Positions 31,463 to 48,886 of a stretch of 64,000 bases of DNA are shown here, piece after piece. Below the pieces are notes generated by a model. That model was not told the DNA's origin and ran no database searches. It was given only the letters and a program-made list of their open reading frames with translations. The translations under genes and the position numbers were made by a program. This DNA is from Candidatus Bathyarchaeia archaeon (GTDB lineage Archaea; Thermoproteota; Bathyarchaeia; Bathyarchaeales; Bathycorpusculaceae): contig JBEKGO010000004.1 in NCBI GenBank assembly GCA_050012755.1, positions 1 to 64,000 of the forward strand, given 5' to 3'. Each line of letters begins with the position of its first letter. The stretch's first letter is position 1.

Positions 31463-32305
31463 TCATAAGCTTCTCAGTTGGTTTAAAGTGCCCAGATAAG
31501 TTCCATCCAAAAGGTAAAGCTCAGAATTATCTACATCCACAGCTTCCGAACGCAAAACTGGTCCAATCAACGATTCTGTGCCGATTTCTTTTCTAGGTCT
31601 GGTCTCGTTTACTGGTCTGCCACCGAGAAAATCATTAAAGCTAGGCATAATAAAAATTTCTTTCGCCTTAAGGCTAGCAGCGTAATGTTTTCTGAGTGTT
31701 TCCGCAACATTGCCTTCAATTTTTATGTTGTGTTTTTGCAATAGAATCTTCCCTAAAGCCTCAGTATTACAGTTTGCTTTCATCCAGATTTGTCTTGTAA
31801 TCTTAAATCCTGCTGGATCACGGAAAACTACAACTGGATGAAGATGCCCCATTACCAATGTTTTGCATTTCAGCAAAGCTGGCGAAGGCCACTTATGGCC
31901 GTGAAAAATGCCAATGTCACCGATTATTGCTCCTGTTGCGGGCAAAAGTTTAATGTTTTCTGGCAGAAGAGGCTCAAGGTTTGCATCGTGGTTTCCCCGT
32001 ACAATAGCGATGGATCCTACATATTTCTGTAATTTAACAAAAAAATCGGGAACATCATGCCACTCTCCTAGCTCACTCGAAATGACCGTGTATTTAACGT
32101 CGCCTAGAATAACAAGTTCCTGTGGCTTGTATTTGGAGATTATTGCAGTTAATTTGTTGAGAATTTTTTCCGTTTGACTTGGGACATGAATGCCTTTTTC
32201 TTGAAATGAGGTTTCCCAGCCGAGGTGAGGGTCAGCGATAAGAAGAGTTTTAGTTTTTTCCCACTTTACGAGTGCTGCAGGATTTGGCCATAACAGTTTC
32301 AGCAT
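31463..32305 (-). CDS. Metallophosphoesterase (calcineurin-like)
   Basis: ADPHLG, LGDVK, RGNHD, FHGH, GHLHP. Confidence 0.9.
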   Translation of the reverse strand: MLKLLWPNPAALVKWEKTKTLLIADPHLGWETSFQEKGIHVPSQTEKILNKLTAIISKYKPQELVILGDVKYTVISSELGEWHDVPDFFVKLQKYVGSIAIVRGNHDANLEPLLPENIKLLPATGAIIGDIGIFHGHKWPSPALLKCKTLVMGHLHPVVVFRDPAGFKITRQIWMKANCNTEALGKILLQKHNIKIEGNVAETLRKHYAASLKAKEIFIMPSFNDFLGGRPVNETRPRKEIGTESLIGPVLRSEAVDVDNSELYLLDGTYLGTLNQLRSL

Positions 32306-33129
32306 GCAGATGTTACCAAGTTTATGATTTTTTTGTGAATTTCCAAGTTACCAGAGGCTACAAAGCTCATGGTTTGCTTGGGATCCAACTCAACGTTTAA
32401 ACCTTGATTATCAGGTTTAGTTACTATTCCGCCTGCTTCTTTGAGGATTAAGAACCCAGCGGCTACATCTGTCGTGCGCAGTTTCCCTCGAATATCAACA
32501 AACGCATCTGTTAGGCCATTAGCTACATAACACAGTTCAAGCGCATTGGCGCCAAAATGTCTGATATTTTTCGTTTTCGCGATTAATGCGGTTAATTTAG
32601 GCGCAACGTCTTTGACTTTGTAAGTGTTTAAGTCTAACCCTACAACTGCCTCCTCCAAAGCAGTAGTCTTTGAAGTTTCTATTTTTTTGCCGTCGCGATA
32701 CGCACCTTTGCCTTCAAAAGCCATATAGGTTACGTCATGGGCAAGGTCAGCAACCAGCCCCGCATAAACATCGTTTAGGGTTCGCTTTCTAGAAACTGCG
32801 ATTGAACACGCATAAAAAGGCAACCCATGCACGAAGTTAGTGCTTCCATCTATCGGGTCAACCGTAATAAAGCAACTCTCGGTTTTGGCTCCAAATTTTT
32901 TTACCCCTGCTTCCTCACTAATCAAGGTAAAAGAAACACCATACTCCTTTAGGGTGTCCACGATTGCTGTTTCAGCCGCCAAATCCACAGGTTTTATTGT
33001 GTCGCCACCAGCACCTGTGCCCAAGTTAGGTTGAGGTTCCCTGATGGTTTTAAGACATGGTTGAATGCTGGCTTGGACATTATTTTTACATTGACTGAGG
33101 ATTTCTTGCCAGTTATTTTGAGATTTCAT
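32299..33129 (-). CDS. suhB: Inositol monophosphatase / FBPase family protein
   Basis: SEE, VDPIDGSTNF, DVAAG. Confidence 0.88.
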   Translation of the reverse strand: MKSQNNWQEILSQCKNNVQASIQPCLKTIREPQPNLGTGAGGDTIKPVDLAAETAIVDTLKEYGVSFTLISEEAGVKKFGAKTESCFITVDPIDGSTNFVHGLPFYACSIAVSRKRTLNDVYAGLVADLAHDVTYMAFEGKGAYRDGKKIETSKTTALEEAVVGLDLNTYKVKDVAPKLTALIAKTKNIRHFGANALELCYVANGLTDAFVDIRGKLRTTDVAAGFLILKEAGGIVTKPDNQGLNVELDPKQTMSFVASGNLEIHKKIINLVTSAC

Positions 33130-33279
33130 TGGAATTTGGTCCTCATTTTCTTATGTACGGTCGAATTGATAAAGACTATACCTGAGTGAATTGGGCAATT
33201 GGCAGTCAAACTGTAGTCTAAATCCGAAATGCTTATATTTTCTGGATAACGTCTCAATCAGCAAGGATTCGAAGCTCCA

Positions 33280-33363
33280 ATGTCCAATTGCAAACTCAAC
33301 AAAGGAAACACTGCATCACAGTTACTTAGCTTCGACTACTACTTTTATCGTTATTTTCCATAA
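33280..33363 (+). CDS. Putative Phe/Tyr-rich leader peptide MSNCKLNKGNTASQLLSFDYYFYRYFP
   Basis: 27-aa uORF between a TATA-like box (~33234) and Asp kinase; 7 of the last 10 codons are Phe/Tyr. Confidence 0.75.
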   Translation: MSNCKLNKGNTASQLLSFDYYFYRYFP

Positions 33364-33401
33364 GCCCAGGACTGAAAAGTTTTTTAAGAAAAGTTCTGGG
33401 C
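33364..33401 (+). promoter_or_regulatory. Stem-loop directly after the leader stop
   Basis: GCCCAGGACT(33364-73) pairs with AGTTCTGGGC(33392-401); loop contains a T6 run. Confidence 0.7.
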
Positions 33402-33420
33402 AAAGCATGGGTGTATCAAT

Positions 33421-34668
33421 ATGAAAAGGACTGGCATTTGTAAAACAATTATTGTTAAATTTGGCGGTTCTAGCCTAGCTGATCACGAGAGACTCTTAAG
33501 AGCGGTGGTCGCCGTTATGAACGAAGCCAAAAAAGGCACACGCGTCGCCGTTGTGGTTTCAGCAATGGGCAAAACAACCGATGTCCTCATGACTACAGCA
33601 AAAAATGCATCCAAGGGCAAATTAGAGAAAAAAGATTTAGATGACATACTCTCGATGGGTGAACGAACCAGCATCCGCATATTCTCAACAGCTTTAAAAA
33701 CTAACGGGGCAGAATCCTGCTACTTTGATCCAATCGATAGCAACTGGCCAATCATAACAGACGCAGCATTCCAAAATGCAAATCCAATCCTAAAAGACTG
33801 CGAGAAAAACATTCGTGAATGCGTTTTGCCAGTTATAGAGAGGGGCGTTATACCTGTGGTTGCAGGTTTTCTTGGCAAAACCAAAGATGGCAAAATTACT
33901 ACTCTTGGAAGAGGCGGAAGTGACACAACAGCGTTTGTCCTAGCTGAAGCATTGGGCGCTGACGAAATTGTCTTAGTAACGGATGCAGACGGCATAATGT
34001 CAGGCGACCCAAAGTTTGTCTCCAACCCTGAACGTCTCAGCGAAATTGACGTTAACACATTAGTTGGGCTTGCTGATTCAGGAGCTAAATTCATTCACAG
34101 CAAAGCCTTGAAGTACAAACCCAAAAACATCAACATCCGAGTAATTAACCATGCACACGGCGACCTTTCCAGAGAAGGCACAGTGATTACAGGCGCATTA
34201 GCAACAGAACTAGACGCAGAAATCGCTCATCCTTTTCCAGTCGCTGAAATAACAGTAATAGGAAACGGCATCTCCGCTAATCCAAAAATCGTTCAGGAAA
34301 TGGTTGAAAAAACTAAGCAGCACTCACTTTTGCTTGGCATGTCTATGTCTACAAACTCAATTATTCTCTATGTTTCTCAGGAGAAAAACTTAGATATGCT
34401 CCTCAACAACATTCATGACATCACTAAGAACAACAAAGAAACAATTGCAATGGCAGTCAAAAAAGACTTGGTCTTCATTAAAACAAGCGGTGTGGGCTTA
34501 GAAGAAACGCATGGCATAATTGGAAAAATCAGCGAAGACCTAAGGCTCAGCGGCATTAATATTTCGGGTATTTTGACCATAACATCCAGCATTTTGCTGT
34601 TTGTAGATTGGAATGAACGGGAGAAGGCTTTGAAGTTAATTAAAAACTCATTAAGGAGTGCTAAATAA
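33421..34668 (+). CDS. lysC: Aspartate kinase
   Basis: VKFGGSSL, VVVSAMGKTTD, TTLGRGGSDTTA, ACT domains. Confidence 0.93.
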   Translation: MKRTGICKTIIVKFGGSSLADHERLLRAVVAVMNEAKKGTRVAVVVSAMGKTTDVLMTTAKNASKGKLEKKDLDDILSMGERTSIRIFSTALKTNGAESCYFDPIDSNWPIITDAAFQNANPILKDCEKNIRECVLPVIERGVIPVVAGFLGKTKDGKITTLGRGGSDTTAFVLAEALGADEIVLVTDADGIMSGDPKFVSNPERLSEIDVNTLVGLADSGAKFIHSKALKYKPKNINIRVINHAHGDLSREGTVITGALATELDAEIAHPFPVAEITVIGNGISANPKIVQEMVEKTKQHSLLLGMSMSTNSIILYVSQEKNLDMLLNNIHDITKNNKETIAMAVKKDLVFIKTSGVGLEETHGIIGKISEDLRLSGINISGILTITSSILLFVDWNEREKALKLIKNSLRSAK

Positions 34669-34674
34669 GCAAAG

Positions 34675-35475
34675 GTGAAGAAAATGAATCAAGGAAAAAC
34701 CAGACGATTAAAACGAATCATGCAATCGGATAGTCGAACAGTAATCATACCTATGGATCATGGCGTAACGGTCGGTCCAATTCAAGGATTAGCTAACATG
34801 CAGCAAATAATCAACCAACTGCTCAAAGGCGGCGCTGATGCTGTGCTAATTCACAAGGGTATCGCTAAACATGTTGACACTGGAAATGCAGGTTTAATAG
34901 TCATGTTGTCAGGCATGTCAAATCTTAGTCCAAACATAAACGCCAAAGTACAGGTGTGCAGCGTCCAAGAAGCCATACGTTTAGGCGCAGACGCAGTTTC
35001 TGTTCACGTTAACGTTGGAGCTCAGGATGAGGACAAAATGCTGATCAATCTTGGCAAAGTAGCCGAAGAATGTGACTTATTTGGCATGCCGCTGCTTGCA
35101 ATGATGTATCCACGGGGACCCAAAATTCAAAATGAACATGCCGCTGATGTGGTAGCACATGCGGCCCGAATCGGTGCAGAACTGGGCGCAGACATCATCA
35201 AGGCAAATTTCACAGGTAACGTTGATACGTTCAAAACAGTTATCGAAAGCTGCCCTGTTCCTGTTGTGATTGCGGGAGGGCCAAAATGCAAAACTTCTCA
35301 AGAAGTTCTCCAGACCACACATGAAGCTTTAGAAGCAGGCGCTTCAGGTCTTTCAATTGGAAGGAATGTGTTTCAACATGATAATCCAACACTAATAGTC
35401 AAAGCCCTTTCTGCAATAGTTCATCAAGGCGCCAGCGTGGAACAAGCGCTTAAAATTCTCGGTGAAAAAGCTTGA
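34675..35475 (+). CDS. aroA': 2-amino-3,7-dideoxy-D-threo-hept-6-ulosonate synthase (AroA', MJ0400-like)
   Basis: Class I aldolase PMDHG, MMYPRG, AELGADIIK, GRNVFQH; adjacent to DHQ synthase II. Confidence 0.9.
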   Translation: MKKMNQGKTRRLKRIMQSDSRTVIIPMDHGVTVGPIQGLANMQQIINQLLKGGADAVLIHKGIAKHVDTGNAGLIVMLSGMSNLSPNINAKVQVCSVQEAIRLGADAVSVHVNVGAQDEDKMLINLGKVAEECDLFGMPLLAMMYPRGPKIQNEHAADVVAHAARIGAELGADIIKANFTGNVDTFKTVIESCPVPVVIAGGPKCKTSQEVLQTTHEALEAGASGLSIGRNVFQHDNPTLIVKALSAIVHQGASVEQALKILGEKA

Positions 35476-36515
35476 AGGAACTCTGGGTAGAAATAGACCA
35501 AGAGGCTTCACGGCTGGAAAAAGAAAGTTTGCTTAGCATTGCCCATGAAAATGCCGACGTAGTTCTTGAAGGTGAGCAAGCGAGTACCCGCTCAGGCAGA
35601 TTGGACATTACCTTTCTTAGTGTGCTGAACGGGCAAAAAATTGCCCTACTTAAAAATGCGAATGTAAAAAGCGCCGTAAAAATCAGCATAAAAGGCAAAA
35701 AAGACGAAAATGAAGCCGCTAAAGCCGCAGAACTCGGGGTGGATTACATAATTATTAACTGCCCTGATTGGCGAGTAATTCCCCTTGAAAACTTGATCGC
35801 AAAGGCACATGGCGGCAAGAGCAAACTGATTGCCGAAGTAACGACGGCTGAGGATGCTAAAGTGGTTCTTGAAGCCTTAGAATTGGGTACAGATGGTGTA
35901 CTGCTTAAAACTTCAAATCCAGATGAGCTTGCAAAAACTGTTAAAGTTGTTAAGGGGCAAATGCCGAAAGTTGCCCTAATAACAGGTAAAATTTTATCCA
36001 TTAAACCGATTGGCACAGGTGCAAGGGTCTGCGTGGATACTGTTGACTTAATGGTTCCTGGAGAAGGAATGCTTGTCGGCTGCCAATCTGCAGGCTTCTT
36101 CCTTGTCGAAGCTGAAGTAAACGAAAACCCCTATGTACAATCCAGACCTTTCCGAGTCAATGCTGGACCAGCATCTCATTACACGTTAACCTCGCTTCAG
36201 AACACTCGTTATCTTTCCGAATTAAAAGCGGGTGACGAGGTTTTAATTATCAACAGGGAAGGAAAAGTCAGAATAACAAATGTTGGAAGATCCAAAATAG
36301 AGTTCCGCCCCCTAATCCTCATAGAAGCCGAAGCCGACGGGACAAAAATAAAAACTATACTTCAAAACGCTGAAACAATAAGAGTAGTTACGCCGCAAGC
36401 TTCAAAACCAGTGACTGAACTAAAACCAAACGATGACGTCCTAGTGCATTTATCTGCGAAAGGAGGCCGACACTTCGGCGTATCTGTGCCTGAAGAAACG
36501 GTGATAGAAAAGTGA
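35472..36515 (+). CDS. aroB': 3-dehydroquinate synthase II (AroB', MJ1249-like)
   Basis: WRVIPLENLIA, RVCVDT, RPFRVNAG, LQNAETIR, GRHFG. Confidence 0.95.
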   Translation: MKELWVEIDQEASRLEKESLLSIAHENADVVLEGEQASTRSGRLDITFLSVLNGQKIALLKNANVKSAVKISIKGKKDENEAAKAAELGVDYIIINCPDWRVIPLENLIAKAHGGKSKLIAEVTTAEDAKVVLEALELGTDGVLLKTSNPDELAKTVKVVKGQMPKVALITGKILSIKPIGTGARVCVDTVDLMVPGEGMLVGCQSAGFFLVEAEVNENPYVQSRPFRVNAGPASHYTLTSLQNTRYLSELKAGDEVLIINREGKVRITNVGRSKIEFRPLILIEAEADGTKIKTILQNAETIRVVTPQASKPVTELKPNDDVLVHLSAKGGRHFGVSVPEETVIEK

Positions 36516-37195
36516 CCTTGAGAATCTGTGTCTCGATTCTCCCAAAAGATAATGCTGAAGCTTTAGGTCTTATTGAGCGGGCAGAGAAAGCCAAAGCAGA
36601 CTTCATTGAGGTCAGGCTAGACTGTCTTGAAACCTCCAGAATCTTATCCGAGCTCTCTAAAAGCACGAAAATCCCTCTAATTGCAACAAACAAATTGCGT
36701 AGTGAAAAAGGCAGTTTCTCTGGAACAGAAACTGAGCGTCAGCAAACGCTGCTAAACGCCGCCAAAAATGGCTTCGAATATGTTGACGTTGACCTTTCAA
36801 GTCCAAAACATAAAGAAACAATCGACAGACTCAAGCAACTGGGCGCCAAACCAATAGTTTCGTTCCACAAATCTGACGGCCCACTAAGTAGTTCTGAAAT
36901 GGGTAACATTCTAAAACAAGAAATCTCCTGCGGAGCTGCTGTATGCAAAATAGTGACAACGGCAAAAAAAATCGAAGACAACTTGACAGTGCTAGACTTC
37001 ATTTCTGCAATGCCCAGCAGGGTGAAACTTGTCTGTTTTTGCATGGGCGAAAACGGCAAGGTTTCCAGACTTCTCTCGCCGATGTTTGGTGCCTTCTTCA
37101 CTTTTGCTTCACTTGAGCGAGGCAACGAAACTGCATCGGGACAAATAAGCATCCAAGACATGAGAATTGCCTACAACCTCTTAGGAGCAAAATAA
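36512..37195 (+). CDS. aroD: Type I 3-dehydroquinate dehydratase
   Basis: EVRLD, SFH, CKIVT, FCMGENGKVSR, ASGQ. Confidence 0.93.
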   Translation: MTLRICVSILPKDNAEALGLIERAEKAKADFIEVRLDCLETSRILSELSKSTKIPLIATNKLRSEKGSFSGTETERQQTLLNAAKNGFEYVDVDLSSPKHKETIDRLKQLGAKPIVSFHKSDGPLSSSEMGNILKQEISCGAAVCKIVTTAKKIEDNLTVLDFISAMPSRVKLVCFCMGENGKVSRLLSPMFGAFFTFASLERGNETASGQISIQDMRIAYNLLGAK

Positions 37196-37197
37196 CA

Positions 37198-38055
37198 ATG
37201 GTTATCTCCGGAAAAACAAAAATTTGCGGTGTAATCGGTGACCCCATAGAACACACACTTAGCCCGATCATGCATAATGCGGCGTTTGAAGCATTGAAAC
37301 TTGATTACGTTTTTTTAGCTTTCAAAGTTGAAGTCGCTAAGGTTGGAAACGCCATAGATGGCATGCGTGCTATGGGTATTCACGGATTAAACGTTACAAT
37401 GCCCCACAAAAACTCGGTCATCAAATTCTTGGATGAATTAGACCCAACTGCCAAAACCATAGCTTCAGCCAATACAATCCTAAACAAAGATGGCAAACTT
37501 TTCGGCTTTAACACTGACGGTGTAGGTGCATTAAACGCGCTGGAGCAAAACGGCGTTGCAGTGAAAGGCAAAAAAATAATGTTGCTCGGCGCAGGCGGAG
37601 CGGCAAAAGCCATAGCATATACTCTTTCACAAGAAGCCGATGAACTGGTAATTTTGAATCGAACACCTGAGCTAGCAAAAAAGCTCGCCAATCTCTTAAA
37701 ACAAAAATTTAACAAAAAAATCAATGCAAATGCGCTTACACAAAAAACGGTCAAAGACAACCTTGCCAAAGCCGATGTAATCATTAACGCTACTTCAATA
37801 GGAATGGAACCAAACGCCGACCAAACCCCAGTAGCAGCCGAATGGTTGAAGCCTGATTTGGCTGTAATGGACATAGTTTACAACCCACTTGAAACCAAGT
37901 TGGCCAAGGATGCTAAAGCGGCAGGCGCCAAAGTGGTAAGCGGGGTTGAAATGCTAATTTATCAGGGAGCTGCCTCGTTTGAAATCTGGACTGCTTGCAA
38001 GGCGCCTGTTGAAGTTATGAGGAAGGCGGCGCTTAATCACTTGTTAAAGGTGTAA
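37198..38055 (+). CDS. aroE: Shikimate dehydrogenase
   Basis: HTLSPIMHN, NVTMPHK, NTDG, GAGGAAKA. Confidence 0.96.
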   Translation: MVISGKTKICGVIGDPIEHTLSPIMHNAAFEALKLDYVFLAFKVEVAKVGNAIDGMRAMGIHGLNVTMPHKNSVIKFLDELDPTAKTIASANTILNKDGKLFGFNTDGVGALNALEQNGVAVKGKKIMLLGAGGAAKAIAYTLSQEADELVILNRTPELAKKLANLLKQKFNKKINANALTQKTVKDNLAKADVIINATSIGMEPNADQTPVAAEWLKPDLAVMDIVYNPLETKLAKDAKAAGAKVVSGVEMLIYQGAASFEIWTACKAPVEVMRKAALNHLLKV

Positions 38056-38928
38056 ATGTTGACTGGTAAAGCTACGGCTATAGCTCATGGCGCGGCAACA
38101 ATCGTTAATGCAATTGCACTCGGAAAAGGCGCAGCTTTTGGAGTTGACTTGTGGACTAAAGCTGAAGTCAAATTGACATCCGAACCGCACGTCTTCGAAG
38201 CCGAAATCATATCCGACCCAAAAGAAAGTACAGTTCTAATTGAAAAAACAGTATCTAGAGTCCTTCAAAAGTTCAGTTTAGATAAGAAGTTCGGTGCAAA
38301 AATAAAGACTTGGTCAAATATTCCAATCGCCAAAGGACTGAAAAGTAGCAGTGCGGCGGCAAACGCGGTAGCTCTCGCATCGGTAGCGGCATTAGGGAAA
38401 ACGCTTGACGACTTAGAAGTTGTAAAGTTAGGTGTCGAGGCTGCTTTTGACTCAAAAGTGACGGTAACCGGCGCTTTTGATGATGCTTGTGCTTCATATT
38501 TTGGCGGTTTTGTGATTACTGATAATTTGAGTCGTGAAGTAGTTAGTAAGTTACCTTTTGCAGAAGACTTATTGGTGTTGTTTCATGTGCCCCCAGAAAA
38601 AGCTTACACAGCAGATTCCAACGTTAAGCGGCTGCAAACAATAAAACCGCTCGTCGAGGTAGCTTACAAAGAGGCTTTAGCCGGAAACATTTGGGGGGCG
38701 TTGACACTGAACGGCTTGATTTACTCATCAGCATCAGGATACAACCCTGCAGTGGCGATAGACGCTTTGGCTGCTGGAGCATTAGCGGCTGGATTATGCG
38801 GCAAAGGACCAGCAGTAACAGCAGTAACTCCTAAAGACAAGGTTGATTCAGTTAAAGAGGCTCTGCAAAAGTACAACGGTGAAATCTTGCAAGCCCATTT
38901 GAACCATGAGAAAGCCAAGGTGCTCTAA
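38056..38928 (+). CDS. aroK: Archaeal (GHMP) shikimate kinase
   Basis: IVNAIALGKG, GLKSSSAAANA, TGAFDDA. Confidence 0.93.
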   Translation: MLTGKATAIAHGAATIVNAIALGKGAAFGVDLWTKAEVKLTSEPHVFEAEIISDPKESTVLIEKTVSRVLQKFSLDKKFGAKIKTWSNIPIAKGLKSSSAAANAVALASVAALGKTLDDLEVVKLGVEAAFDSKVTVTGAFDDACASYFGGFVITDNLSREVVSKLPFAEDLLVLFHVPPEKAYTADSNVKRLQTIKPLVEVAYKEALAGNIWGALTLNGLIYSSASGYNPAVAIDALAAGALAAGLCGKGPAVTAVTPKDKVDSVKEALQKYNGEILQAHLNHEKAKVL

Positions 38929-38930
38929 CA

Positions 38931-40235
38931 ATGACAGATGTAATCATCAAGAAAACAGAAAAATTAAGTGGCGAAGTATGTGCCCCCCCGTCAAAATCCT
39001 ATACACAGAGAATGCTCATAGCCGCTGCTTTATCAAACGGAATATCCAAGATATCTAATCCTCTCTTATCAGAAGACACCAAAGCAACCCTGCGCGCCAC
39101 AACGGCTCTAGGTGCAAAGGTAGCAACGGATGAGGATTGCTGGACAGTTACAGGCGCAAGCCCTCTTACGAATGCCAAAGAACCTATCGACTGCGGAGAA
39201 TCAGGTGCAACGTTGCGTTTCATGATCCCGGTAGCAGCATTAACATCCGACCCTTCAACTTTGATTTTTGGCGGTTCACTTGAACGCAGACCCATTGAAC
39301 CCTTAATCAAAAGTTTAGATGACCTTGGCGCAAATGTGCGTATGAAGAAACTTGGCAACAAAGACGCTGTGTTTGTTACGGGCGGCGGTATTCTTGGAGG
39401 CGAAACCTCTATTCCCGGAGATGTGAGCTCACAGTTTATTTCTGGATTAATGTTCGCTTGTCCAATGGCAAAAGTGGATACGGAAATCGCTTTAACATCG
39501 CCTCTTGAATCTGCAGACTACGTCAAAATGACTTGGGACGTGCTAGCTAAACATGAAATCAGAATAGAAGTTCACGACAACTATAGACTCATTCACATTC
39601 CAGCCAACCAAACTTACAAGCCATTTGACTCCAAGGTGCCAGGCGATTTTTCCTCCTCAGCATTTCTACTTGCTGCCTCAGCCATAACCTCTTCAAATGT
39701 CCAAATTCGCAATCTTGAATATGCTAGCCCTCAAGGAGACAAGGCGATTCTAGGCATCCTCAAGCAAATGGGCATCGTGGGAAGAGTTTGTGAAAACAGC
39801 GTTGAGATAAATGGAACGGGCAATACTCTTGAACCCCTTAATGTTGATGCAAAAAATATTCCTGATTTAGTTCCCGTATGTGCAGTGCTTGCATGCTTCG
39901 CAAAAGGCACTTCGAAAATCACGGGCGCGCAACGGCTTAAACTCAAGGAGTCGGACAGGTTGAAGTCGTTGCATCTTGAGTTGAGAAAGATGGGCGCGAA
40001 AATAAAAGTGGATTCAAGCGGCTTAACCATTGAAGGTCCCTGTAACTTGCATGGTGCAGTGATTAATCCGCATAATGACCACCGAATAGCAATGGCGTGT
40101 GCGGTTGCAGCTTTAGGTGCAAAAAACCAAACCACAATTCAAAACGCAGAATGCGTTAGAAAGTCTTATCCGCAGTTCTTCACTCATCTAAAACAAATAG
40201 GAGCTGAAATTGTTGGCGGGAAATTCGATAGGTAA
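38931..40235 (+). CDS. aroA: EPSP synthase
   Basis: PPSKS, SSQFISG, KESDR, DHRIAM, KSYP. Confidence 0.96.
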   Translation: MTDVIIKKTEKLSGEVCAPPSKSYTQRMLIAAALSNGISKISNPLLSEDTKATLRATTALGAKVATDEDCWTVTGASPLTNAKEPIDCGESGATLRFMIPVAALTSDPSTLIFGGSLERRPIEPLIKSLDDLGANVRMKKLGNKDAVFVTGGGILGGETSIPGDVSSQFISGLMFACPMAKVDTEIALTSPLESADYVKMTWDVLAKHEIRIEVHDNYRLIHIPANQTYKPFDSKVPGDFSSSAFLLAASAITSSNVQIRNLEYASPQGDKAILGILKQMGIVGRVCENSVEINGTGNTLEPLNVDAKNIPDLVPVCAVLACFAKGTSKITGAQRLKLKESDRLKSLHLELRKMGAKIKVDSSGLTIEGPCNLHGAVINPHNDHRIAMACAVAALGAKNQTTIQNAECVRKSYPQFFTHLKQIGAEIVGGKFDR

Positions 40236-41325
40236 AGAATTCACAGTAACCACTTTCGGCGAAAGCCACGGTAAAATTGTCGGCGTAGTCGTCGATGGAT
40301 GCCCAGCGGGATTGCCTCTTTCTGAAGCTGACATTCAAATAGACTTAGATAGGCGTATTCCAGCGGAGCCAAAAATTGTTTCAGGACGAATTGAGAAAGA
40401 CACCGCCAAAATATTGTCAGGAATTTTTAACGGTTTTACCACTGGCGCCCCAATTGCTATGACGGTTGAGAATCGGGAGGTTGACTCAAGCGATTACGAA
40501 GCAATCAAGGATTTGCCCCGACCAGGGCACTCAGATTACCCAGCTGGCGTAAAATATGGTGGCTTTCAGGATTATCGAGGTGGCGGGCGCTTCTCAGGGA
40601 GAGTTACAGTGGCGCTCATCATGGCTGGAGCGGTAGCAAAAAAACTGCTTAGCCGATTTGATGTTGACGTGTTAGCGTACACTACAGCAATTGGCCAAGT
40701 CAAAACTGACAAAAAGTTTAGTGCAGAAGAAATCCGAAAGAACAGGTACTCAGCGTCCACGCGGTGTCCCGACTTTGCCTGTGCAGAAAAAATGGAGCAA
40801 GCCATTGTGGAGGCTAGGAGAGAAGGCGAAAGTGTTGGCGGAATAGTTGAATGTATGGCGTTAAATGTTCCAGTCGGGGTTGGAGAACCAATGTTTGACT
40901 CGCTTGACGCTGATTTAGCGAAAGCGTTGTTTAATGTTCCCGCTGTAAAAGCAGTTGAGTTCGGGTTAGGTTTTGAGATTGCAGAATTAAAAGGTTCTGA
41001 AAGTAATGATACGTTTATCATGCAAAGCGGAAAAGTCGCTACTTCAACGGAAAATATGGGCGGAATCCTGGGCGGCTTATCCAATGGTATGCCCATTATA
41101 ATGCGGATAGCAATTAAACCGACGCCTTCAATTGGCAAAGAGCAGAAAACCGTTAACCTTTCAACTATGAAAGCTGCTGGTCTGAGTGTTAAGGGAAAGC
41201 ATGATCCCTGTGTTGTTCCAAAAGCCGTACCAGCTGTGGAAGCTGCGGTCGCAGTGACTTTAGCTGACCATATGATTCGAGCGGGCTTTATACCGAAAGT
41301 TCTGGAGAGACAGAAAAATGGATGA
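40210..41325 (+). CDS. aroC: Chorismate synthase
   Basis: FGESHG, PRPGHSD, RGGGRFSGR, KPTPSI, GKHDPC. Confidence 0.96.
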   Translation: MLAGNSIGKEFTVTTFGESHGKIVGVVVDGCPAGLPLSEADIQIDLDRRIPAEPKIVSGRIEKDTAKILSGIFNGFTTGAPIAMTVENREVDSSDYEAIKDLPRPGHSDYPAGVKYGGFQDYRGGGRFSGRVTVALIMAGAVAKKLLSRFDVDVLAYTTAIGQVKTDKKFSAEEIRKNRYSASTRCPDFACAEKMEQAIVEARREGESVGGIVECMALNVPVGVGEPMFDSLDADLAKALFNVPAVKAVEFGLGFEIAELKGSESNDTFIMQSGKVATSTENMGGILGGLSNGMPIIMRIAIKPTPSIGKEQKTVNLSTMKAAGLSVKGKHDPCVVPKAVPAVEAAVAVTLADHMIRAGFIPKVLERQKNG

Positions 41326-41578
41326 AATCCAACAATTACGAAAAAAAGTTGATGAAATTGACGAGCAAATCATAACTGCCCTACGCGAAAGAACGAAAAC
41401 ATGTAGCGCCATTGGATTTATTAAGAAAAAGAAGGGCTTACCGGTAAGGGACGTTGCCCGAGAAAACGAGGTTTTTAAACGGATGAATGAAAAAGCTCTA
41501 GAATTTCACCTTAATCCCTTGCAAGTTGAAGCAGTTTACCGCGAAATAGTTAATATGTGCAGTGCTATTCAGGAGTAA
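41318..41578 (+). CDS. Chorismate mutase (AroQ type)
   Basis: LRKKVDEIDEQII..RER..IG..K..RE. Confidence 0.9.
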   Translation: MDEIQQLRKKVDEIDEQIITALRERTKTCSAIGFIKKKKGLPVRDVARENEVFKRMNEKALEFHLNPLQVEAVYREIVNMCSAIQE

Positions 41579-42686
41579 AAAAAGAACTTCAGCGGAAGTA
41601 ACCTCTGTGCTTTACGAAATAAATGAGAAGGCCATAAGGCTCGAAAACCAAGGAAAAAAGATAATACGCTTAAACCTAGGTGACCCTGACTTAGCTACGC
41701 CTAACGAAATAATTGAGGCAGCTTATGCTTCGATGAAGGCGGGCAAAACAAAATATTCCTCCGCCTACGGCGAGAGCAAACTTCGACAAAAGCTTGCCGA
41801 ACTTCACGGCGTTAAAACTGAAAACGTTGTTATTACCCCTGGTTCAAAATGGGGTGTTTTCGCCACCATGTATCTCATGATGAAGGGAGGAGGAAACGTT
41901 ATCATCCCTACTCCTTACTGGACAGCTTACGATTTGATCGCTAAAAGTCTCGGCGCCGAGACTAAACTGCTTAGGACAGAGATGGAAGGCGGGTGGAAAG
42001 TTGACCTTGAAAAACTCGAAGACACTATTGACAAGAATACTCGAATGATAATACTTAACAATCCAAATAATCCCACGAGCAAAGTTATTGATCCTGCAAC
42101 TCTCGATGGCATAGTGGAAATTGCAAACAAGAAAGGCGTTACCATTCTTTCAGATGAGGTTTACGGAACAATCAGTTTCGTTAAAACCAAAAGCATCCTA
42201 GAATATGACGGCGACCACACCCATATTCTAACCACCGGTTTCTCCAAAACATTTAGTATGACAGGCTGGAGAATCGGCTACATAATTGCAAACAAAAAAC
42301 TCATCGATAACATAACTAAACTCAACCAAATAACCATCAACAACGTGCCCGTTTTCATTCAAGAAGCAGCTTTGAAAGGGTTGGAATTGCAAAAACAGCT
42401 TGCGACAAAAATAAAAGAAGAATATGAACAGCGTGCGAAGTTGGCAAGTAAGACTTTGGCTAAAGCAGGTTTCTCATTTACAAAACCTGAGGCGCCATTC
42501 TACGTTTTTCCAAAACGTTCCGGCTTAGACTCGGAAAAATTCACCTTGGACTTGCTAGACAAAGGCGTTGCAATAGCTCCAGGCACATCATTTGGGGACT
42601 ACAGAGAGCATTTCCGTATCTCATTAACTGCTCCAAGAGACGAAATCAAAACTGGTCTTGATATAATTGGCGAGGCTTTGAAATGA
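41562..42686 (+). CDS. Class I/II aminotransferase (aromatic/aspartate)
   Basis: NNPNNPT, SDEVY, SKTFSMTGWRIG. Confidence 0.92.
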   Translation: MLFRSKKRTSAEVTSVLYEINEKAIRLENQGKKIIRLNLGDPDLATPNEIIEAAYASMKAGKTKYSSAYGESKLRQKLAELHGVKTENVVITPGSKWGVFATMYLMMKGGGNVIIPTPYWTAYDLIAKSLGAETKLLRTEMEGGWKVDLEKLEDTIDKNTRMIILNNPNNPTSKVIDPATLDGIVEIANKKGVTILSDEVYGTISFVKTKSILEYDGDHTHILTTGFSKTFSMTGWRIGYIIANKKLIDNITKLNQITINNVPVFIQEAALKGLELQKQLATKIKEEYEQRAKLASKTLAKAGFSFTKPEAPFYVFPKRSGLDSEKFTLDLLDKGVAIAPGTSFGDYREHFRISLTAPRDEIKTGLDIIGEALK

Positions 42687-43558
42687 AAATCGCCGTAATT
42701 GGCGCAGGCAAAATGGGTATATGGTTTGCTAAATTCCTCCAATTAAAAGGCTACGATGTAACGTTAGCTGACAGAAAAAAAGAAAAAATTGCAAATTTAA
42801 AAAAGGAACTATCGGTTAAGACGACCACTGATTTTAAAGCTGCCGTTGCAAACGTTGACCAAATTCTAATCTGCGTATCAATCAGCGCCATGAAAGAGGT
42901 AGTCAAAACCATTGCTCCAGCACTTCACAAAGGACAAGTTGTCATGGATATCTGCTCCATCAAAGAATCACCAGTAAGACTCATGCATGAAAACATCAAG
43001 GCTGCCTTAGTTTTAGGCACTCATCCAGTTTTCGGTCCAGGCAGCAATGGCGTCAAACACAAAGCCTACATCTTGACCCCAACCAACCCAGCGGAAGAAA
43101 AGTTTGCAGAAGAGTTCAAAAAGTGGTTGGAACAAGAGGAAGCACATGTCTTTGTCATGTCTCCAAAGAAGCATGATGAGCTAATGTCAGTTGTTTTGGG
43201 TCTGCCGCATTTTATTGGCTTGGTCGCTTGTGAAACGCTTCTAGAACAGAAAGATTTTCCCGAAACAAAAAAGGTGGCGGGCACCACTTATCGAATGCTG
43301 TTTACGCTTGCTGAAGCAACGGCACTGGAAACACCCGACCTGTACGCAAACCTTCAGACAAGCTTGCCTAAGCTGGGAAAAATTGAAGACCAATTCATGG
43401 TTAAAGCACAAGAATGGCTGAACCTGATTAAGAACAAGGATTCAGATGCAATCGTAAAACATATGGAACAGCTGAAGAAAAAATTGGCGGCTACTGACGG
43501 TGACTTTGCCAAATCTTACGAAGTCATGTATAAAATGCTAGAATCCACAGAAAAATAA
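42683..43558 (+). CDS. tyrA: Prephenate dehydrogenase
   Basis: GAGKMG, DICSIK, HPVFGP, HDELMS..LPH. Confidence 0.92.
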   Translation: MKIAVIGAGKMGIWFAKFLQLKGYDVTLADRKKEKIANLKKELSVKTTTDFKAAVANVDQILICVSISAMKEVVKTIAPALHKGQVVMDICSIKESPVRLMHENIKAALVLGTHPVFGPGSNGVKHKAYILTPTNPAEEKFAEEFKKWLEQEEAHVFVMSPKKHDELMSVVLGLPHFIGLVACETLLEQKDFPETKKVAGTTYRMLFTLAEATALETPDLYANLQTSLPKLGKIEDQFMVKAQEWLNLIKNKDSDAIVKHMEQLKKKLAATDGDFAKSYEVMYKMLESTEK

Positions 43559-43640: not shown

Positions 43641-44456
43641 CTAGATTGTTTTAGGGTATGAACCTAAGATTTTGACAAAAATCGCGTATTTCTCAAGAGC
43701 TGTTAATGCCTCGCAACATTTAGCTTCGCTTCGGTGTCCCTCAAAGTCTAGGTAAAAATTATATTCCCATGCTGTTTTTTTTGTTGGTCTGGATTCGATT
43801 TTTGTCAGGTTGATGTTTCGTTTGGCGAATTCTCCGAGTGCATGGTAGAGTGAGCCTGGCTCATGTTTGGCTGAGAAGATTATGCTGGTTTTGTCTTTGC
43901 CTGTAGGTGCCGCGTCTTCTGTGTATAACACAAAGAAGCGGGTGTAGTTTTCAAGGTTATCTGCAATGTCCTTGGCGAGGATGTGCATGCCGTAAATGTT
44001 TGCTGCTCTTTCACTGGCGATTGCGGCGGCGTTTTTGAGGTTTTTTTCCTTGATCATTTTAACGCTGCCAGCGGTGTCGTAGGTGGGTATGAGTTCGCGT
44101 CCAAAATCTTCAAGGAAGCTTCGGCATTGCCCAAGAGCTTGTGGATGCGAATAAACCATTTTTATGTCTTCCAAAGATGTGCCGGGGTTTGCGATGAGGC
44201 AATGTTCAATTTTGAAAATTACTTCAGCGCAGACTTTTAAATCATAACGTAGAAAAAGGTCATAATTCTGAGGCACGCTGCCTTCTAAGCTGTTCTCAAT
44301 TGGAACAATGCCAAATTGGGTTTTTTGTGTGCATACGCTGTCAAAAACATCCTTGAAGTCTTTGCAGGGATTGACTTTGGTTTTTGCGCCGAAGAATTGG
44401 AAGGCTGCGCCTTCGCTGTATGCGCCTGGTTCGCCTTGGAAGGCTACGGTTTTCAC
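43641..44456 (-). CDS. pheA: Prephenate dehydratase
   Basis: PIENSLEG, SHPQALGQC, NYTRF, IESRP, LGSYP. Confidence 0.96.
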   Translation of the reverse strand: MKTVAFQGEPGAYSEGAAFQFFGAKTKVNPCKDFKDVFDSVCTQKTQFGIVPIENSLEGSVPQNYDLFLRYDLKVCAEVIFKIEHCLIANPGTSLEDIKMVYSHPQALGQCRSFLEDFGRELIPTYDTAGSVKMIKEKNLKNAAAIASERAANIYGMHILAKDIADNLENYTRFFVLYTEDAAPTGKDKTSIIFSAKHEPGSLYHALGEFAKRNINLTKIESRPTKKTAWEYNFYLDFEGHRSEAKCCEALTALEKYAIFVKILGSYPKTI

Positions 44457-45976
44457 TTTTTGTTTCCCTGCGTATGATTCTTTATCAGCAGCTTGTTTAT
44501 ACCGTTTATCATTGCTTCAACGCTTGCCATTACTATGTCTTCTCTGGCTGCGCGTGCGGAAACGATGTTGCCTTTTTCGTCTTCGACTTTTATGACGACT
44601 TCTGCGACTGCATTTGAGCCACCTGTGATGGCTTCAAGTCGATACTCACTTAGCCGTATGTTTTCTAGGTTGTTGGTTAATTTCTGTATGGCTTTTAGAA
44701 CTGCGTCAACTGGCCCTACTCCAGTTTCGGCGGCGATGTATTCTTTTCCGTTTAAGGTTAGTCTGACTGAGGCTGTTGGGATTACTTTGATGCCAGTTAC
44801 GACTGCCAAGTCGCACAAGTCAACGATTTTTTCTTCGCCGATTACTTGACCCATAACAGAGGAAGTTAACGCCAGCAAATCGGCATCCGTTACCATCTTA
44901 CCCTTGTCGCCTAATTCTTTGACCCGCTTCACAATCTCTTTTAGCTGCTCCTCAGATGCGTGAATGCCTATTTCTTCCAGTTCTGCTTTGATTCCTCGCG
45001 TTCCCGCCAACTTTCCCGCAACCAATTTTCTTGTGCGGCCAACCAATTCGGGTTTTATCGGCTCAAAAGTTAACGGCTTCTCAGTAACACCGCGAGTGTG
45101 AATTCCTGATTCATGGGCAAAAGCGTTTTCGCCTACAATTGCCTTGTTTGCCTGTACCGCTATACCAGTTAATGAAGCAACCAAACGCGACGTGCTGTAC
45201 AGTAATCGGGTGTTTACTCCTGTCTTGTACTTGTAGATTTCATGTAACGCCATAACTACTTCTTCCAACGAAGCATTTCCAGCGCGCTCACCTAAGCCGT
45301 TAACGGCAACGTGAACCTGAGAGGCGCCGGCTTCGATAGCGGCTAATGAGTTGGCAACTGCCAAGCCGAAGTCATCATGGCAATGAGTGCTTATCGGAAC
45401 CTTAACTACCGTTCTTAGTTCCTCAATTAGCTTGATGGTTGTTTTGGGAATCATTATACCTACGGTGTCTGGTACGTTTAGGCTGTCCATGCCTGCTTTT
45501 TCGGCGGCTTGACACACCTGTTTCAGAAAGGGCATTTCAGAGCGTGTAGCATCCATGGGTGAAAACTCACATTTCAACCCGTGTTTTTTCACGTATTCTA
45601 TAGAATCCACAGTGGAAGACAATACTTGTTGGGGTGTTAAGTTTACTGCATATTTCATTTGGACAGTCGATGTTGGAATGAAAACGTGTACTAGGCCAAC
45701 GTCGCAGTCGATTGCTGCATCAATATCGCCTTTTGTTGCTCGGGATAAAGCGCAGATTTCAGAGGTTAAGCCTGCTTTTGCTATGTCTTTGACTACTTTT
45801 TTTTCGCCTTCGGAAGAACTGGGAAAACCGGCTTCGATTGTGTCGACTCCTAACTTGTTTAGTTGGAGTGCGATCTCCATCTTATCATCTGAAGTTAAAG
45901 AAACTCCAGGGGTCTGTTCTCCATCTCTTAGTGTTGTGTCAAAAATTCGGATACGTCTTGAGGTTTTACCTGTCAT
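44453..45976 (-). CDS. leuA: 2-isopropylmalate synthase / citramalate synthase family
   Basis: DTTLRDGEQ, HCHDDFG, GERAGN, HESGIH, regulatory domain GPVDA. Confidence 0.88.
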   Translation of the reverse strand: MTGKTSRRIRIFDTTLRDGEQTPGVSLTSDDKMEIALQLNKLGVDTIEAGFPSSSEGEKKVVKDIAKAGLTSEICALSRATKGDIDAAIDCDVGLVHVFIPTSTVQMKYAVNLTPQQVLSSTVDSIEYVKKHGLKCEFSPMDATRSEMPFLKQVCQAAEKAGMDSLNVPDTVGIMIPKTTIKLIEELRTVVKVPISTHCHDDFGLAVANSLAAIEAGASQVHVAVNGLGERAGNASLEEVVMALHEIYKYKTGVNTRLLYSTSRLVASLTGIAVQANKAIVGENAFAHESGIHTRGVTEKPLTFEPIKPELVGRTRKLVAGKLAGTRGIKAELEEIGIHASEEQLKEIVKRVKELGDKGKMVTDADLLALTSSVMGQVIGEEKIVDLCDLAVVTGIKVIPTASVRLTLNGKEYIAAETGVGPVDAVLKAIQKLTNNLENIRLSEYRLEAITGGSNAVAEVVIKVEDEKGNIVSARAAREDIVMASVEAMINGINKLLIKNHTQGNKK

Positions 45977-45980
45977 TTTT

Positions 45981-47018
45981 TCAACCAGTTTTCGCAGTTA
46001 AAGCTGCAGCAATGGCTTCTGCCATTCCAACCGTCGTGGTTTTGCCGCCGCAGTCTGGAACAGATTGACGATTACTCAGAGCATACACTACCCCATTCTC
46101 TATTGCGCTACCTGCTTGTAAGCATTTTTTGTCGTTGTATTTTTCACCCAACCACTCCAGCATCATCTTTGCAGATAATATCATTGAGATTGGGTTCGCA
46201 GTGTGTTTTCCTGCCCTGTTTGGTGCTGAACCATGGATAGGTTCGAAAAGCGCAAAGTTGTCGCCAACGTTAGCGCCTGGAGCCATGCCTAAGCCGCCGA
46301 TTTGCTGAGCTGCTTCATCTGAGAGAATATCACCGAACATGTTGCATGTGCAGAAGACATCAAACACCTGTGGTTCCTTTATCAGACGCATAGATGCTGC
46401 ATCAACATATAACTCGTCAAAGGCGATGTCTGGGTACCGTTTCGCTGTTTCACGGCATACACTTGCGAATAATCCGTCGGTCACTCGCATAACGTTGGCT
46501 TTGTGTATAGCGGTTACCTTCTTTTTGCCGTTGCGTAAACGGGCAATCTCGAAGGCTTTCTTGGCTATGCGTTCACAATTTCCTCTGGTGATAACCCGCA
46601 TGCATACGGTTGTATCGTTGCCTATCGTAAATTCTAAGCCTTTGTAAACGTCCTCGGTGTTTTCCCGAACAAACATCATGTCAATGTCTGGTCTTGCAAC
46701 AGGAACGTTGGGATAAGCTTTCAAAGGACGCAGATTAGCATATAAATCGAACATTACTCTGAGCTTTACTATGACGTCAGCTGCGGTTTCGCCTACTGGT
46801 CCTTTTAGGCAGGCATGGGATTGTTTGATTTTTTGCACTGTGTCTTCTGGTAGTGCGGCGCCTCTTTTAGCTAGGGTCGCATCGCCAGCCTCTGCCTCGA
46901 TAATTTGCAGTTTTACTCCGAATTTTTTCTGTGCGGAATCTAAGACTTTTAGGGTGGCTTCGGTTAATTCTGGTCCGATGCCGTCGCCTGGGATTAAAGA
47001 TATTTTGTATTCTGTCAT
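45981..47018 (-). CDS. leuB: 3-isopropylmalate dehydrogenase family
   Basis: GDGIGPE, RENTE, NMFGDILSDEAA, EPIHGSAP. Confidence 0.88.
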   Translation of the reverse strand: MTEYKISLIPGDGIGPELTEATLKVLDSAQKKFGVKLQIIEAEAGDATLAKRGAALPEDTVQKIKQSHACLKGPVGETAADVIVKLRVMFDLYANLRPLKAYPNVPVARPDIDMMFVRENTEDVYKGLEFTIGNDTTVCMRVITRGNCERIAKKAFEIARLRNGKKKVTAIHKANVMRVTDGLFASVCRETAKRYPDIAFDELYVDAASMRLIKEPQVFDVFCTCNMFGDILSDEAAQQIGGLGMAPGANVGDNFALFEPIHGSAPNRAGKHTANPISMILSAKMMLEWLGEKYNDKKCLQAGSAIENGVVYALSNRQSVPDCGGKTTTVGMAEAIAAALTAKTG

Positions 47019-47518
47019 TTTTTGTTTATTCTCCTTCGTAAGTTTTCGATTAATCCGCCGTCTACCAATATTTCGATGATGAATGGTGGTAGCTTGTCTA
47101 CTTGAAACTTTTTGCCTTTTGAAACATTTTCTATCTTGCCCACCTCAAAATCCACGGCTAATTCATCGCCTGTTTCAACCGCTGCTGATATCCCCTTACA
47201 CTCGATCACTGGCAAGCCAATGTTTATTGCGTTTCGGAAGAAGATTCGAGCGAAAGATTCGGCTAAAACGCATTTTACGCCTGCATATTTCAGGGCTAAA
47301 GGAGCTTGTTCTCGGCTTGAACCGCAACCAAAGTTTTTGCCCACAACTATGATTACGCCTTTTTTTGCTTTTTCAGGAAACACGGGGTCTAAACCTGCCA
47401 AAGCGTGTTTAGCTAACTCGTAAGGGTCAACCAACGTCATATATTGTCCAGGCAGAATAACGTCTGTGTCAACGTTGTTTCCTAATTTTATGGCTGGTCC
47501 TTTGATTTTCATGTTCAT
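47015..47518 (-). CDS. leuD: 3-isopropylmalate dehydratase small subunit
   Basis: VDTDVILP, NFGCGSSREQA, FARIFFRNAINIG. Confidence 0.92.
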   Translation of the reverse strand: MNMKIKGPAIKLGNNVDTDVILPGQYMTLVDPYELAKHALAGLDPVFPEKAKKGVIIVVGKNFGCGSSREQAPLALKYAGVKCVLAESFARIFFRNAINIGLPVIECKGISAAVETGDELAVDFEVGKIENVSKGKKFQVDKLPPFIIEILVDGGLIENLRRRINKK

Positions 47519-48783: not shown

Positions 48784-48831
48784 TGTTCGTTCTCTCTTTT
48801 ACAATAATTACTTTGAGGAATACATCATAAA

Positions 48832-48855
48832 CGGTTTCTCATTTTTGAGAAACCG
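48832..48855. promoter_or_regulatory. Perfect inverted repeat between ilvN and leuC
   Basis: CGGTTTCTCA-TTTT-TGAGAAACCG. Confidence 0.55.
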
Positions 48856-48886
48856 AAAGTTAAGCGTTTCCGTTCAAAGAAACGAT

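Follow-up and report, generated by a model that had tools for sequence, protein, structure and literature searches.

Within the first 64,000 nucleotides of contig JBEKGO010000004.1 of a Candidatus Bathyarchaeia archaeon (assembly GCA_050012755.1; hereafter the window), a short open reading frame (ORF) dense in phenylalanine and tyrosine codons lies between a TATA-like promoter and an operon for aromatic amino acid biosynthesis, and it is this leader ORF, with the RNA structures around it, that we describe here as a candidate attenuator. The leader ORF (33280..33363, + strand, as are all features below unless the minus strand is named) opens with the ATG at 33280, carries 27 sense codons (MSNCKLNKGNTASQLLSFDYYFYRYFP) and closes with the TAA at 33361-33363. 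Its tail reads ...SFDYYFYRYFP, with Phe or Tyr in seven of the last ten codons and no Trp, just as an earlier reading of the DNA alone (the sequence-only reading) had reported. The Phe/Tyr codon block F D Y Y F Y R Y F (33331..33357) is the presumed sensor, and the N-terminal part is hypervariable. An AAGG Shine-Dalgarno (SD)-like motif stands in front of the ATG and, further upstream, the conserved promoter CCGAAATGCTTATATTTT (33224..33241), resembling a B recognition element (BRE) and TATA box, is almost invariant across 58 aligned relatives. From the usual archaeal spacing, the transcription start site (TSS) is predicted near 33260, about 20 nt 5′ of the leader ORF.

At the first base after the stop codon begins an RNA hairpin (33364..33401) with a 10-bp stem, including one G·U pair, and an 18-nt loop; its arm GCCCAGGACT (33364-33373) pairs with AGTTCTGGGC (33392-33401). 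A T6 run (33380..33385), the U-tract of the RNA and a candidate archaeal pause or termination signal, is located in the loop; 3′ of the stem there is no T-run. The sequence-only reading had described the stem and the T6 in the same way, and both are seen in the window sequence, the stem also in the fold. The GGGTG SD-like motif of the kinase gene (33409..33413) stands 8 nt 3′ of the hairpin, and 57 nt separate the leader ORF from the first gene of the operon, which starts at ATG 33421 and encodes a 415-aa amino-acid kinase. In relatives the kinase SD is GGGTG, GGAGG or GGGGG, and it is unpaired in the predicted minimum free energy folds. The kinase SD and start are overlapped, as ATGA, by a mini-ORF of five codons at 33407-33424 (ATG GGT GTA TCA ATA TGA). 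It is probably incidental; in one relative compared by eye (L002) the frame does not end there.

The operon (33421..43558) comprises 11 genes packed so tightly that neighbours overlap or are only a few bases apart, with identities confirmed by Pfam: an Asp kinase (amino-acid kinase plus ACT), aroA′ (DeoC-type aldolase), DHQ synthase II, aroD, aroE, a GHMP-type shikimate kinase, EPSP synthase (aroA), aroC (chorismate synthase), a chorismate mutase, an aminotransferase and tyrA (prephenate dehydrogenase). There is no trp gene among them, and the position of the ORF between a TATA-like box and an 11-gene operon without trp genes, as first read from the letters, is thus upheld by sequence and Pfam alike. 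The archaeal aromatic pathway condenses 6-deoxy-5-ketofructose phosphate (DKFP) with aspartate semialdehyde, which is why an aspartate kinase belongs in an aromatic operon. The leader would place this DKFP-type pathway, together with its dedicated aspartate kinase, under control linked to Phe and Tyr.

Conservation and coding character of the leader ORF

The orthologous kinase (50-91% identity) is present in 27 of the first 41 related genomes, and at all 27 loci an F/Y-rich upstream ORF (uORF) precedes it, ending 44-77 nt before the kinase. The three paralogous kinase loci found (36-46% identical) have at most two F/Y each. In a larger sample of the order, the orthologous kinase was found in 162 of 301 genomes, and 40 loci from its other genera and families all carried the uORF (40/40); like the other sets outside the genus, they were picked by hand for spread and not exhaustively, and related loci are not independent. 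Taken together, the same-order loci give 67/67 (27 plus 40), with at least six F/Y in 62 of them and exactly five in the remaining five. The loci of Bathyarchaeota metagenome-assembled genomes (MAGs) that have upstream sequence give 60/60, in a set that partly overlaps the others and is not independent of them.

At the level of the class, a kinase match was obtained in 111 of 301 sampled genomes, and 37 loci outside the order were picked. Eleven of these, from six families, combine 7-10 F/Y with a hairpin adjacent to the stop; three have five F/Y, one has four and one is cut by a contig end. Nine have kinases only 39-43% identical, probably of the lysine/threonine type, and no F/Y uORF, and in the last 12, which represent two families, the place of the F/Y-rich uORF is taken by another conserved one. 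This other uORF (L073-L078 and L080-L085, both families belonging to other orders and having the orthologous kinase) reads for example M-G-D-[HR]-L-F-G-D-G-V-Y..., MGGHLYWH... or GYIFGGHLYGGHNW..., follows a GGTGAAGA-like SD and is separated from the kinase by a spacer that varies from 40 to 150 nt. It may be a sequence-specific leader of the arrest type.

The leader peptides differ by lineage (..SFDYYFYYYHFP, MMFYRYRFFFYR, ..YFSGYWFTY, ..RFFTYFSGYYTTF, ..FFDFFYYYFYFE, ..NPYYYYYYYCFF), so that the feature has persisted while its sequence was completely replaced. The sequence-only reading had made its case depend on conserved F/Y-rich uORFs in relatives, and the relatives did not refute it: in many Bathyarchaeia lineages ORF, aromatic bias, length and hairpin are kept while the sequences change. 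To judge from this conservation, the F/Y-rich leader is not a product of chance. Counts within the genome can be set beside it. Only two of the 5,468 intergenic-like short ORFs (sORFs; ATG start, 10-45 codons) of this genome reach seven F/Y in a 10-codon window, and the one other than the leader ORF, on contig 3, lies behind a tRNA gene, is rich in T and has a single Tyr. For the relatives a looser detector was used, which scores every open frame within 250 nt upstream by the F/Y in its last 12 codons and keeps the highest count; its background over 1,342 upstream windows is at least five F/Y in 89 (6.6%), at least six in 21 (1.6%) and at least seven in four (0.3%), the leader ORF described here being among these four.

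The start codon of the leader and its SD are kept. The distance from candidate start to stop is 22-29 codons in nearly all loci, and one family uses a TTG start, preceded by GGAGAG. In the alignment of 58 close relatives, conservation is seen in the promoter, around the start and in the aromatic block, and the N-terminal codons are hypervariable. Among the 57 close relatives that are correctly anchored, we counted 37 distinct C-terminal tails, all of them aromatic, with Tyr at 37% and Phe at 28% of the tail codons. F and Y swap positions, and both synonymous codons of each are in use (TTT 114, TTC 65, TAT 161, TAC 78). Over 119 distinct tails from all lineages, F plus Y account for 65-88% at positions -2 to -8, for 24% at -1 and for at most 7% from -15 upstream; the aromatic block is confined to codons -2 to -13, and the last codon (-1) is mostly Pro or Asn. 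By this pattern of substitution, the leader ORF is evolving as a coding sequence.

These data bear on two explanations that need no sensing of amino acids. According to the first, a constitutive uORF and its hairpin would set basal expression, through translational coupling, mRNA stabilisation or the synchronising of polymerase and ribosome, and the aromatic bias would be the by-product of a need for U-rich RNA. Indeed, U-rich sequence and a U-tract recur, a helix described below (A:B) imposes an RNA-level constraint that overlaps the ORF, and no alternative OFF structure was found. However, a need for U-rich RNA would not keep the frame, the start codon, a length of 22-29 codons and UUY/UAY codons. 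Furthermore, Tyr makes up 37% of the tail codons but 3% in the intergenic-like sORFs of the genome, and more than ten families would show the association with the Phe/Tyr pathway by coincidence. We thus hold this explanation to be improbable. The second, an aromatic micropeptide acting in trans, has in its favour the conservation and probable translation of the uORF, and in bacteria some leader peptides do act in trans, peTrpL being one (PMC7298713). Nevertheless, the N-terminus of the peptide is hypervariable and only its composition is conserved, its location strictly follows that of the hairpin and the operon, and it is present in a single copy per genome; we give this explanation very little credence.

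The stop-adjacent hairpin and helix A:B

The isolated hairpin has a folding energy of -17.2 kcal/mol on the + strand (z -3.9), a stability that none of 200 shuffles reaches, and of -11.5 kcal/mol on the minus strand; the fold of the whole leader shows no extra stability over shuffles (z -0.05). The hairpin motif is single-copy in the genome. At 73 of 81 loci the first stem, with at least 5 bp in its outer part, has its start between -3 and +6 nt relative to the last base of the stop codon, and its arm sequences are unrelated between lineages (GCCCAGAACT, GGAGAAATCAAGAC, GGAAGAGCC, GCCGCGACCG, GCTTCGAAACC). Within the family, 97.1% of the cells of the hairpin alignment are paired, with compensatory changes at three pairs, and slid controls for the whole structure give 21-46%. 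The non-Watson-Crick cells on the + strand are G·U in 40 cases and A·C in three, and this large excess of G·U indicates that the hairpin is an RNA structure of the + strand. In one natural variant, from a Bathyarchaeota MAG (L154), the leader stop is replaced and the ORF runs on for four codons (..YFPQAQN) into the 5′ arm of the hairpin.

T-runs of at least four are frequent at the 73 loci with a clear hairpin, especially in the genus (T4-T7), but they are not universal. They lie in the loop at 48 loci and directly after the hairpin at 11, which belong to other families; 54 loci have one in either place. An internal promoter in the loop was also considered and was rejected, the loops being unlike the TATA box of each lineage.

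The structure could also mean that the ORF is incidental, the locus being either a non-coding RNA (a riboswitch, or a leader that binds a protein or tRNA) or the inverted repeat of a DNA operator. Two helices are conserved here, and archaeal amino acid operons are usually under the control of transcription factors. Nevertheless, a scan of 32000-35000 against Rfam 15 returned no match at E up to 10, and on seven related loci the only Rfam match, to HEARO, was below threshold and unrelated to the leader. The hypervariable stretch between the two helices stays an open frame, which would not be expected of an incidental ORF. As for a DNA operator, it was rejected on the G·U over A·C asymmetry, which argues for RNA and not for a DNA palindrome, and the arms are moreover unrelated between lineages. 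An incidental ORF is in our view quite improbable.

The second helix, A:B, joins the start region of the leader to its aromatic block. Element A, TCGAAGCT (33269..33276), stands between the SD-like AAGG and the leader ATG, 4 nt before the ATG, and pairs with element B, AGCTTCGA (33328..33335), which covers the codons Ser-Phe-Asp that open the block. In the 58 sequences 97.4% of the cells of this helix are paired, against the 21-46% of the slid controls, and the changes observed are solely one-sided wobbles (A-to-G or A-to-G-type); AGCTTC in element B is invariant, third positions included. Other families have different sequences in the same places: AGCCGCU with AGCGGCU in one (codons F-S-G-Y), AAAGGAAAU with AUUUCUUUU in a further one (codons Y-F-F-Y). 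The z-scores of such A:B-type pairings in other families range from -3.4 to +1.4 against shuffles. A pairing of the 5′ element with the arms of the hairpin was tried as well and was not retained as a general feature, being significant in few lineages only (f5 and some f7; mean z -0.40).

A proposed model for Phe/Tyr sensing

The reading of this element as a regulatory leader is strongly supported by the comparison of related loci. More precisely, we consider it reasonably probable, if well short of certain, that it is a cis-acting, ribosome-mediated leader-peptide attenuator of the aromatic operon, which senses charged Phe/Tyr-tRNA. What is observed is the anatomy of the locus, its conservation and covariation, the coding-type evolution of the uORF and the presence of uORF, hairpin and kinase start on common RNA contigs; that the leader is translated, that ribosomes stall on it, where transcription starts, which way control works and at what step it takes effect are deductions of ours.

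How could the leader act? A ribosome would translate the 27 codons and, when charged Phe-/Tyr-tRNA is scarce, would stall in the aromatic block (codons -2 to -13). We take a ribosome to reach about 12 nt beyond the first base of its A-site codon, as is usual in bacteria. With an aromatic codon at -3 to -13 in its A site, the stalled ribosome would stay short of the hairpin, which would fold, and it would also hold helix A:B open. When Phe and Tyr are plentiful, a ribosome arriving at the stop codon would unwind the 5′ arm and leave the U-rich loop and the 3′ arm single-stranded. Since a ribosome at the stop would open the hairpin and a stalled one would spare it, the state of the hairpin would report passage through the Phe/Tyr codons. 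The operon being biosynthetic, we propose that the folded hairpin corresponds to ON and the ribosome-opened hairpin to OFF. As for helix A:B, we infer that it closes the leader start site after the ribosome has left the aromatic block, which would limit leader translation to the first, polymerase-near ribosome unless that ribosome stalls on the block.

Three outputs can be envisaged. The first is transcriptional: the folded hairpin would shield the nascent U-tract RNA behind the polymerase from termination of the U-tract/FttA type. Archaeal transcription is terminated by oligo-U tracts and FttA/aCPSF1. FttA is proposed to target RNA from polymerases that have lost their ribosome (PMC8716108, PMC11616081). 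The involvement of FttA at this locus is pure conjecture on our part. The second is translational: a freed 3′ arm, pyrimidine-rich and resembling an anti-SD, would mask the kinase ribosome site in some lineages. In several families, though not in this genus, a pyrimidine-rich 3′ arm is seen by eye just before GGAGG or GGGGG, as with CUCUUCC before GGAGG. The search for a conserved partner of the freed 3′ arm in the genus yielded only a pairing of the loop U-run with A-rich early kinase codons, which we judged compositional and rejected. In the third, ribosomes queued on the leader would stabilise the mRNA.

The most specific version of the first output is that the single hairpin is an anti-terminator that folds solely on a Phe/Tyr stall and shields the U-tract RNA from oligo-U/FttA termination, with helix A:B limiting translation to the pioneer, polymerase-coupled ribosome. 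It would make the element the first archaeal attenuator that senses amino acids, ancient and widespread in Bathyarchaeia and built unlike the bacterial ones. We put it forward tentatively, as a possibility that may well turn out to be wrong. If true, the leader would be a natural reporter of transcription-translation coupling and of factor-dependent termination in archaea.

A ligand-sensing arrest peptide, of the TnaC, AAP or SpeFL kind, would use the same parts differently. The aromatic nascent chain would bind free Phe/Tyr in the exit tunnel and block termination at the stop codon, and the arrested ribosome would keep the hairpin open, and the operon off, while the amino acid stays abundant. 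Such a peptide would produce a lasting difference between two states, with the right polarity; it would account for the exact placing of the hairpin at the stop codon, and for a last codon that is seldom aromatic and frequently Pro or Asn. Furthermore, the tail S-F-[DG]-Y-x-F-Y is fairly conserved within the family, and the leader of other orders, M-G-[DG]-[HR]-L-[FY]-G-D-G-V-Y, looks more sequence-specific. However, across lineages only the composition is kept, and no residue stands at a fixed distance from the end (MMFYRYRFFFYR, ..FFTYFSGYYTTF, ..FFDFFYYYFYFE). F and Y interchange freely, a run of 7-9 cognate codons is the hallmark of codon-based sensing, and the S-F-[DG]-Y conserved within the family overlaps RNA helix B. 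We consider an arrest peptide unlikely, though not negligibly so.

Metatranscriptome contigs of relatives, 90-95% alike to the window, span 33275-33465, 33280-33425 and 33322-33578, so that the leader ORF, the hairpin and the kinase start occur together on contigs from RNA libraries. Two contigs from two different studies start near 33275; this is a weak hint only, and it fits a TSS upstream of the leader ORF. Six sequencing runs contained 5-9% of the sampled words each; four of them, compared with the window, gave contigs of relatives only, and no run of this organism was found.

Several observations weigh against attenuation by charged Phe/Tyr-tRNA, or against parts of the mechanism proposed. 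The RNA contigs are uninformative on transcript ends, strand and level, and they may include DNA carry-over. Plain transcriptional models, in which a ribosome close behind the polymerase aids read-through, would give the wrong polarity, with read-through at plenty. A T-run is missing at 19 of the 73 hairpin loci, and no second structure of the 3:4 terminator type was found in the genus. Accessibility of the kinase ribosome site was compared at 56 loci by constrained partition-function folds of three states (free, ribosome at the stop, ribosome stalled); in the genus it went up at 13 loci, down at six and stayed unchanged at five, and elsewhere the result was mixed. A pairing of the F/Y codons with the kinase start was rejected (mean z +0.28 over 65 loci, four of them below -1 and ten above +1).

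Three further points of this kind concern other operons. The trp operon of the same genome (G000 contig 16, 2877-8573, minus strand) has no Trp-rich leader. Of 56 other amino-acid-rich sORFs with a downstream ORF, 20 were hand-picked and two of these, at contig ends, were left aside; none of the remaining 18 is followed by a gene of the cognate pathway; the genes 3′ of them encode OMP decarboxylase, an ATP synthase subunit, a thiolase, ribosomal L14, EF-2 and others, or have no Pfam match. With a leaderless trp operon and a cognate count of 0/18, attenuation as a genome-wide system finds no support here, and the leader of the aromatic operon appears to stand alone. A Trp-rich sORF on contig 17 was likewise discarded as a leader, as it sits at a gene junction. 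Finally, the operon of L188 (G051), which seems to begin with aroA′ (66% identical) and lacks the orthologous kinase, has no F/Y leader, and its sole small upstream ORF, MASATAKISTIRLLYNWG, is not F/Y-rich. From this one case, the leader seems to be tied to the kinase-first arrangement.

Relation to known leader-peptide systems

Leader-peptide attenuation is a textbook bacterial mechanism and depends on coupled transcription and translation. The element described here shares with leader-peptide attenuators in the broad sense a short ORF with start signals of its own in the 5′ leader of an amino acid biosynthesis operon, an enrichment in codons for the end products, and the retention of the regulatory codons while the rest of the peptide drifts. 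Its closest likeness is to pheL-pheA, trpL and hisL of E. coli, where a short 5′ leader ORF is also dense in end-product codons and the regulatory codons alone are conserved, where an RNA structure also abuts the end of the ORF, and where the ribosome site of the leader can also be sequestered by downstream RNA.

The sequence-only reading had gone further and equated the locus with the layout of pheL/trpL, a comparison that did not hold. In the classical trp/phe/his type, overlapping 1:2/2:3/3:4 segments form mutually exclusive structures; here a single hairpin lies directly after the stop codon and is accompanied by a 5′ helix, with no terminator/antiterminator alternative and, in the genus, no conserved partner for the 3′ arm when the 5′ arm is blocked. 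The U-tract that directly follows the hairpin in the classical type is also missing from the window, where the T6 is in the loop (a T-run of at least four follows the hairpin at the 11 of 73 loci from other families mentioned above). Moreover, the second helix pairs the 5′ untranslated region with the first regulatory codons, two amino acids would be sensed at once, and the host is an archaeon, with oligo-U and FttA in place of the hairpin-dependent bacterial terminator.

Two other groups of leaders deserve comparison. In mgtL/mgtA of Salmonella, with Rho, and in ermC, the position of a ribosome on the uORF decides the fold of the RNA, as we propose here, and the output is the access of a factor or of a ribosome to its site. 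The poly-Cys uORFs of mycobacteria belong with ermC to translational attenuation, uORF ribosome position again deciding the fold (bioRxiv 10.1101/834739). In contrast to all of these, our folds gave no alternative in which the ribosome site of the kinase, or a site for a factor, would be hidden. In TnaC (PMC8429421) and in fungal AAP, an event at the stop codon of a short leader has consequences for RNA or factors downstream, and Pro is often last, which recalls the present leader. However, arrest peptides keep residues at fixed positions, and across the families studied here no conserved residue was found at a fixed distance, the aromatic composition alone being common to the lineages.

Judged by its sequence features, the element looks like an archaeal variant of leader-peptide regulators, a kind so far described only in bacteria. 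We found no precedent for leader-peptide attenuation in archaea in the literature searched, most subscription journals lying outside its coverage. A review of archaeal transcription-translation coupling (PMC8116511), searched by term, does not contain 'attenuation', 'attenuator' or 'leader peptide', and a Methanosarcina Ribo-seq paper (PMC11456600) mentions uORFs in general terms only. Archaea couple transcription and translation, but terminate by oligo-U tracts and FttA. Comparative support of the kind usually asked of bacterial attenuators is at hand for the present candidate, drawn from dozens of species in ten or more lineages of family rank whose sequences differ. Furthermore, the element is short (about 160 nt) and could be carried into tractable archaea or in vitro systems, as a test of ribosome-polymerase coupling, U-tract pausing and the access of FttA.

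Other observations on neighbouring genes and related loci

The upstream neighbour of the leader is a divergent gene of the inositol-monophosphatase family, with its end at 33129.

Three genomes of the same family (G041, G133 and G208, each 100% complete) have no orthologous kinase and no aroA′ match at E 1e-30 or better. These organisms may be aromatic amino acid auxotrophs or users of another route.

At three of the loci with kinases 39-43% identical, probably of the lysine/threonine type (L102, L108 and L109), a shared motif of the form GGAGGnGTCGcgTTTTCAGGGGGcCTCGTtTTTAT precedes the kinase by about 100-150 nt. Rfam returned no match for it, and it could be an undescribed RNA element.

The trp operon on contig 16 (2877-9300 region) starts right after a TATA-like box, downstream of a CutA-like ORF named by eye. 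Its gene order is trpE-G-D-C-B-A as judged by order and size, trpA alone being confirmed by Pfam.

Lastly, an apparent ilvB-ilvN-leuC-leuD-leuB-leuA-like operon (43641-51111, minus strand; ilvB and ilvN named from their translations by eye) converges on the aromatic operon, and its last gene is pheA (prephenate dehydratase plus ACT, 43641-44456, minus strand). With pheA in this place, the enzyme of the Phe branch would therefore be co-transcribed with the branched-chain amino acid genes, outside the control of the leader.

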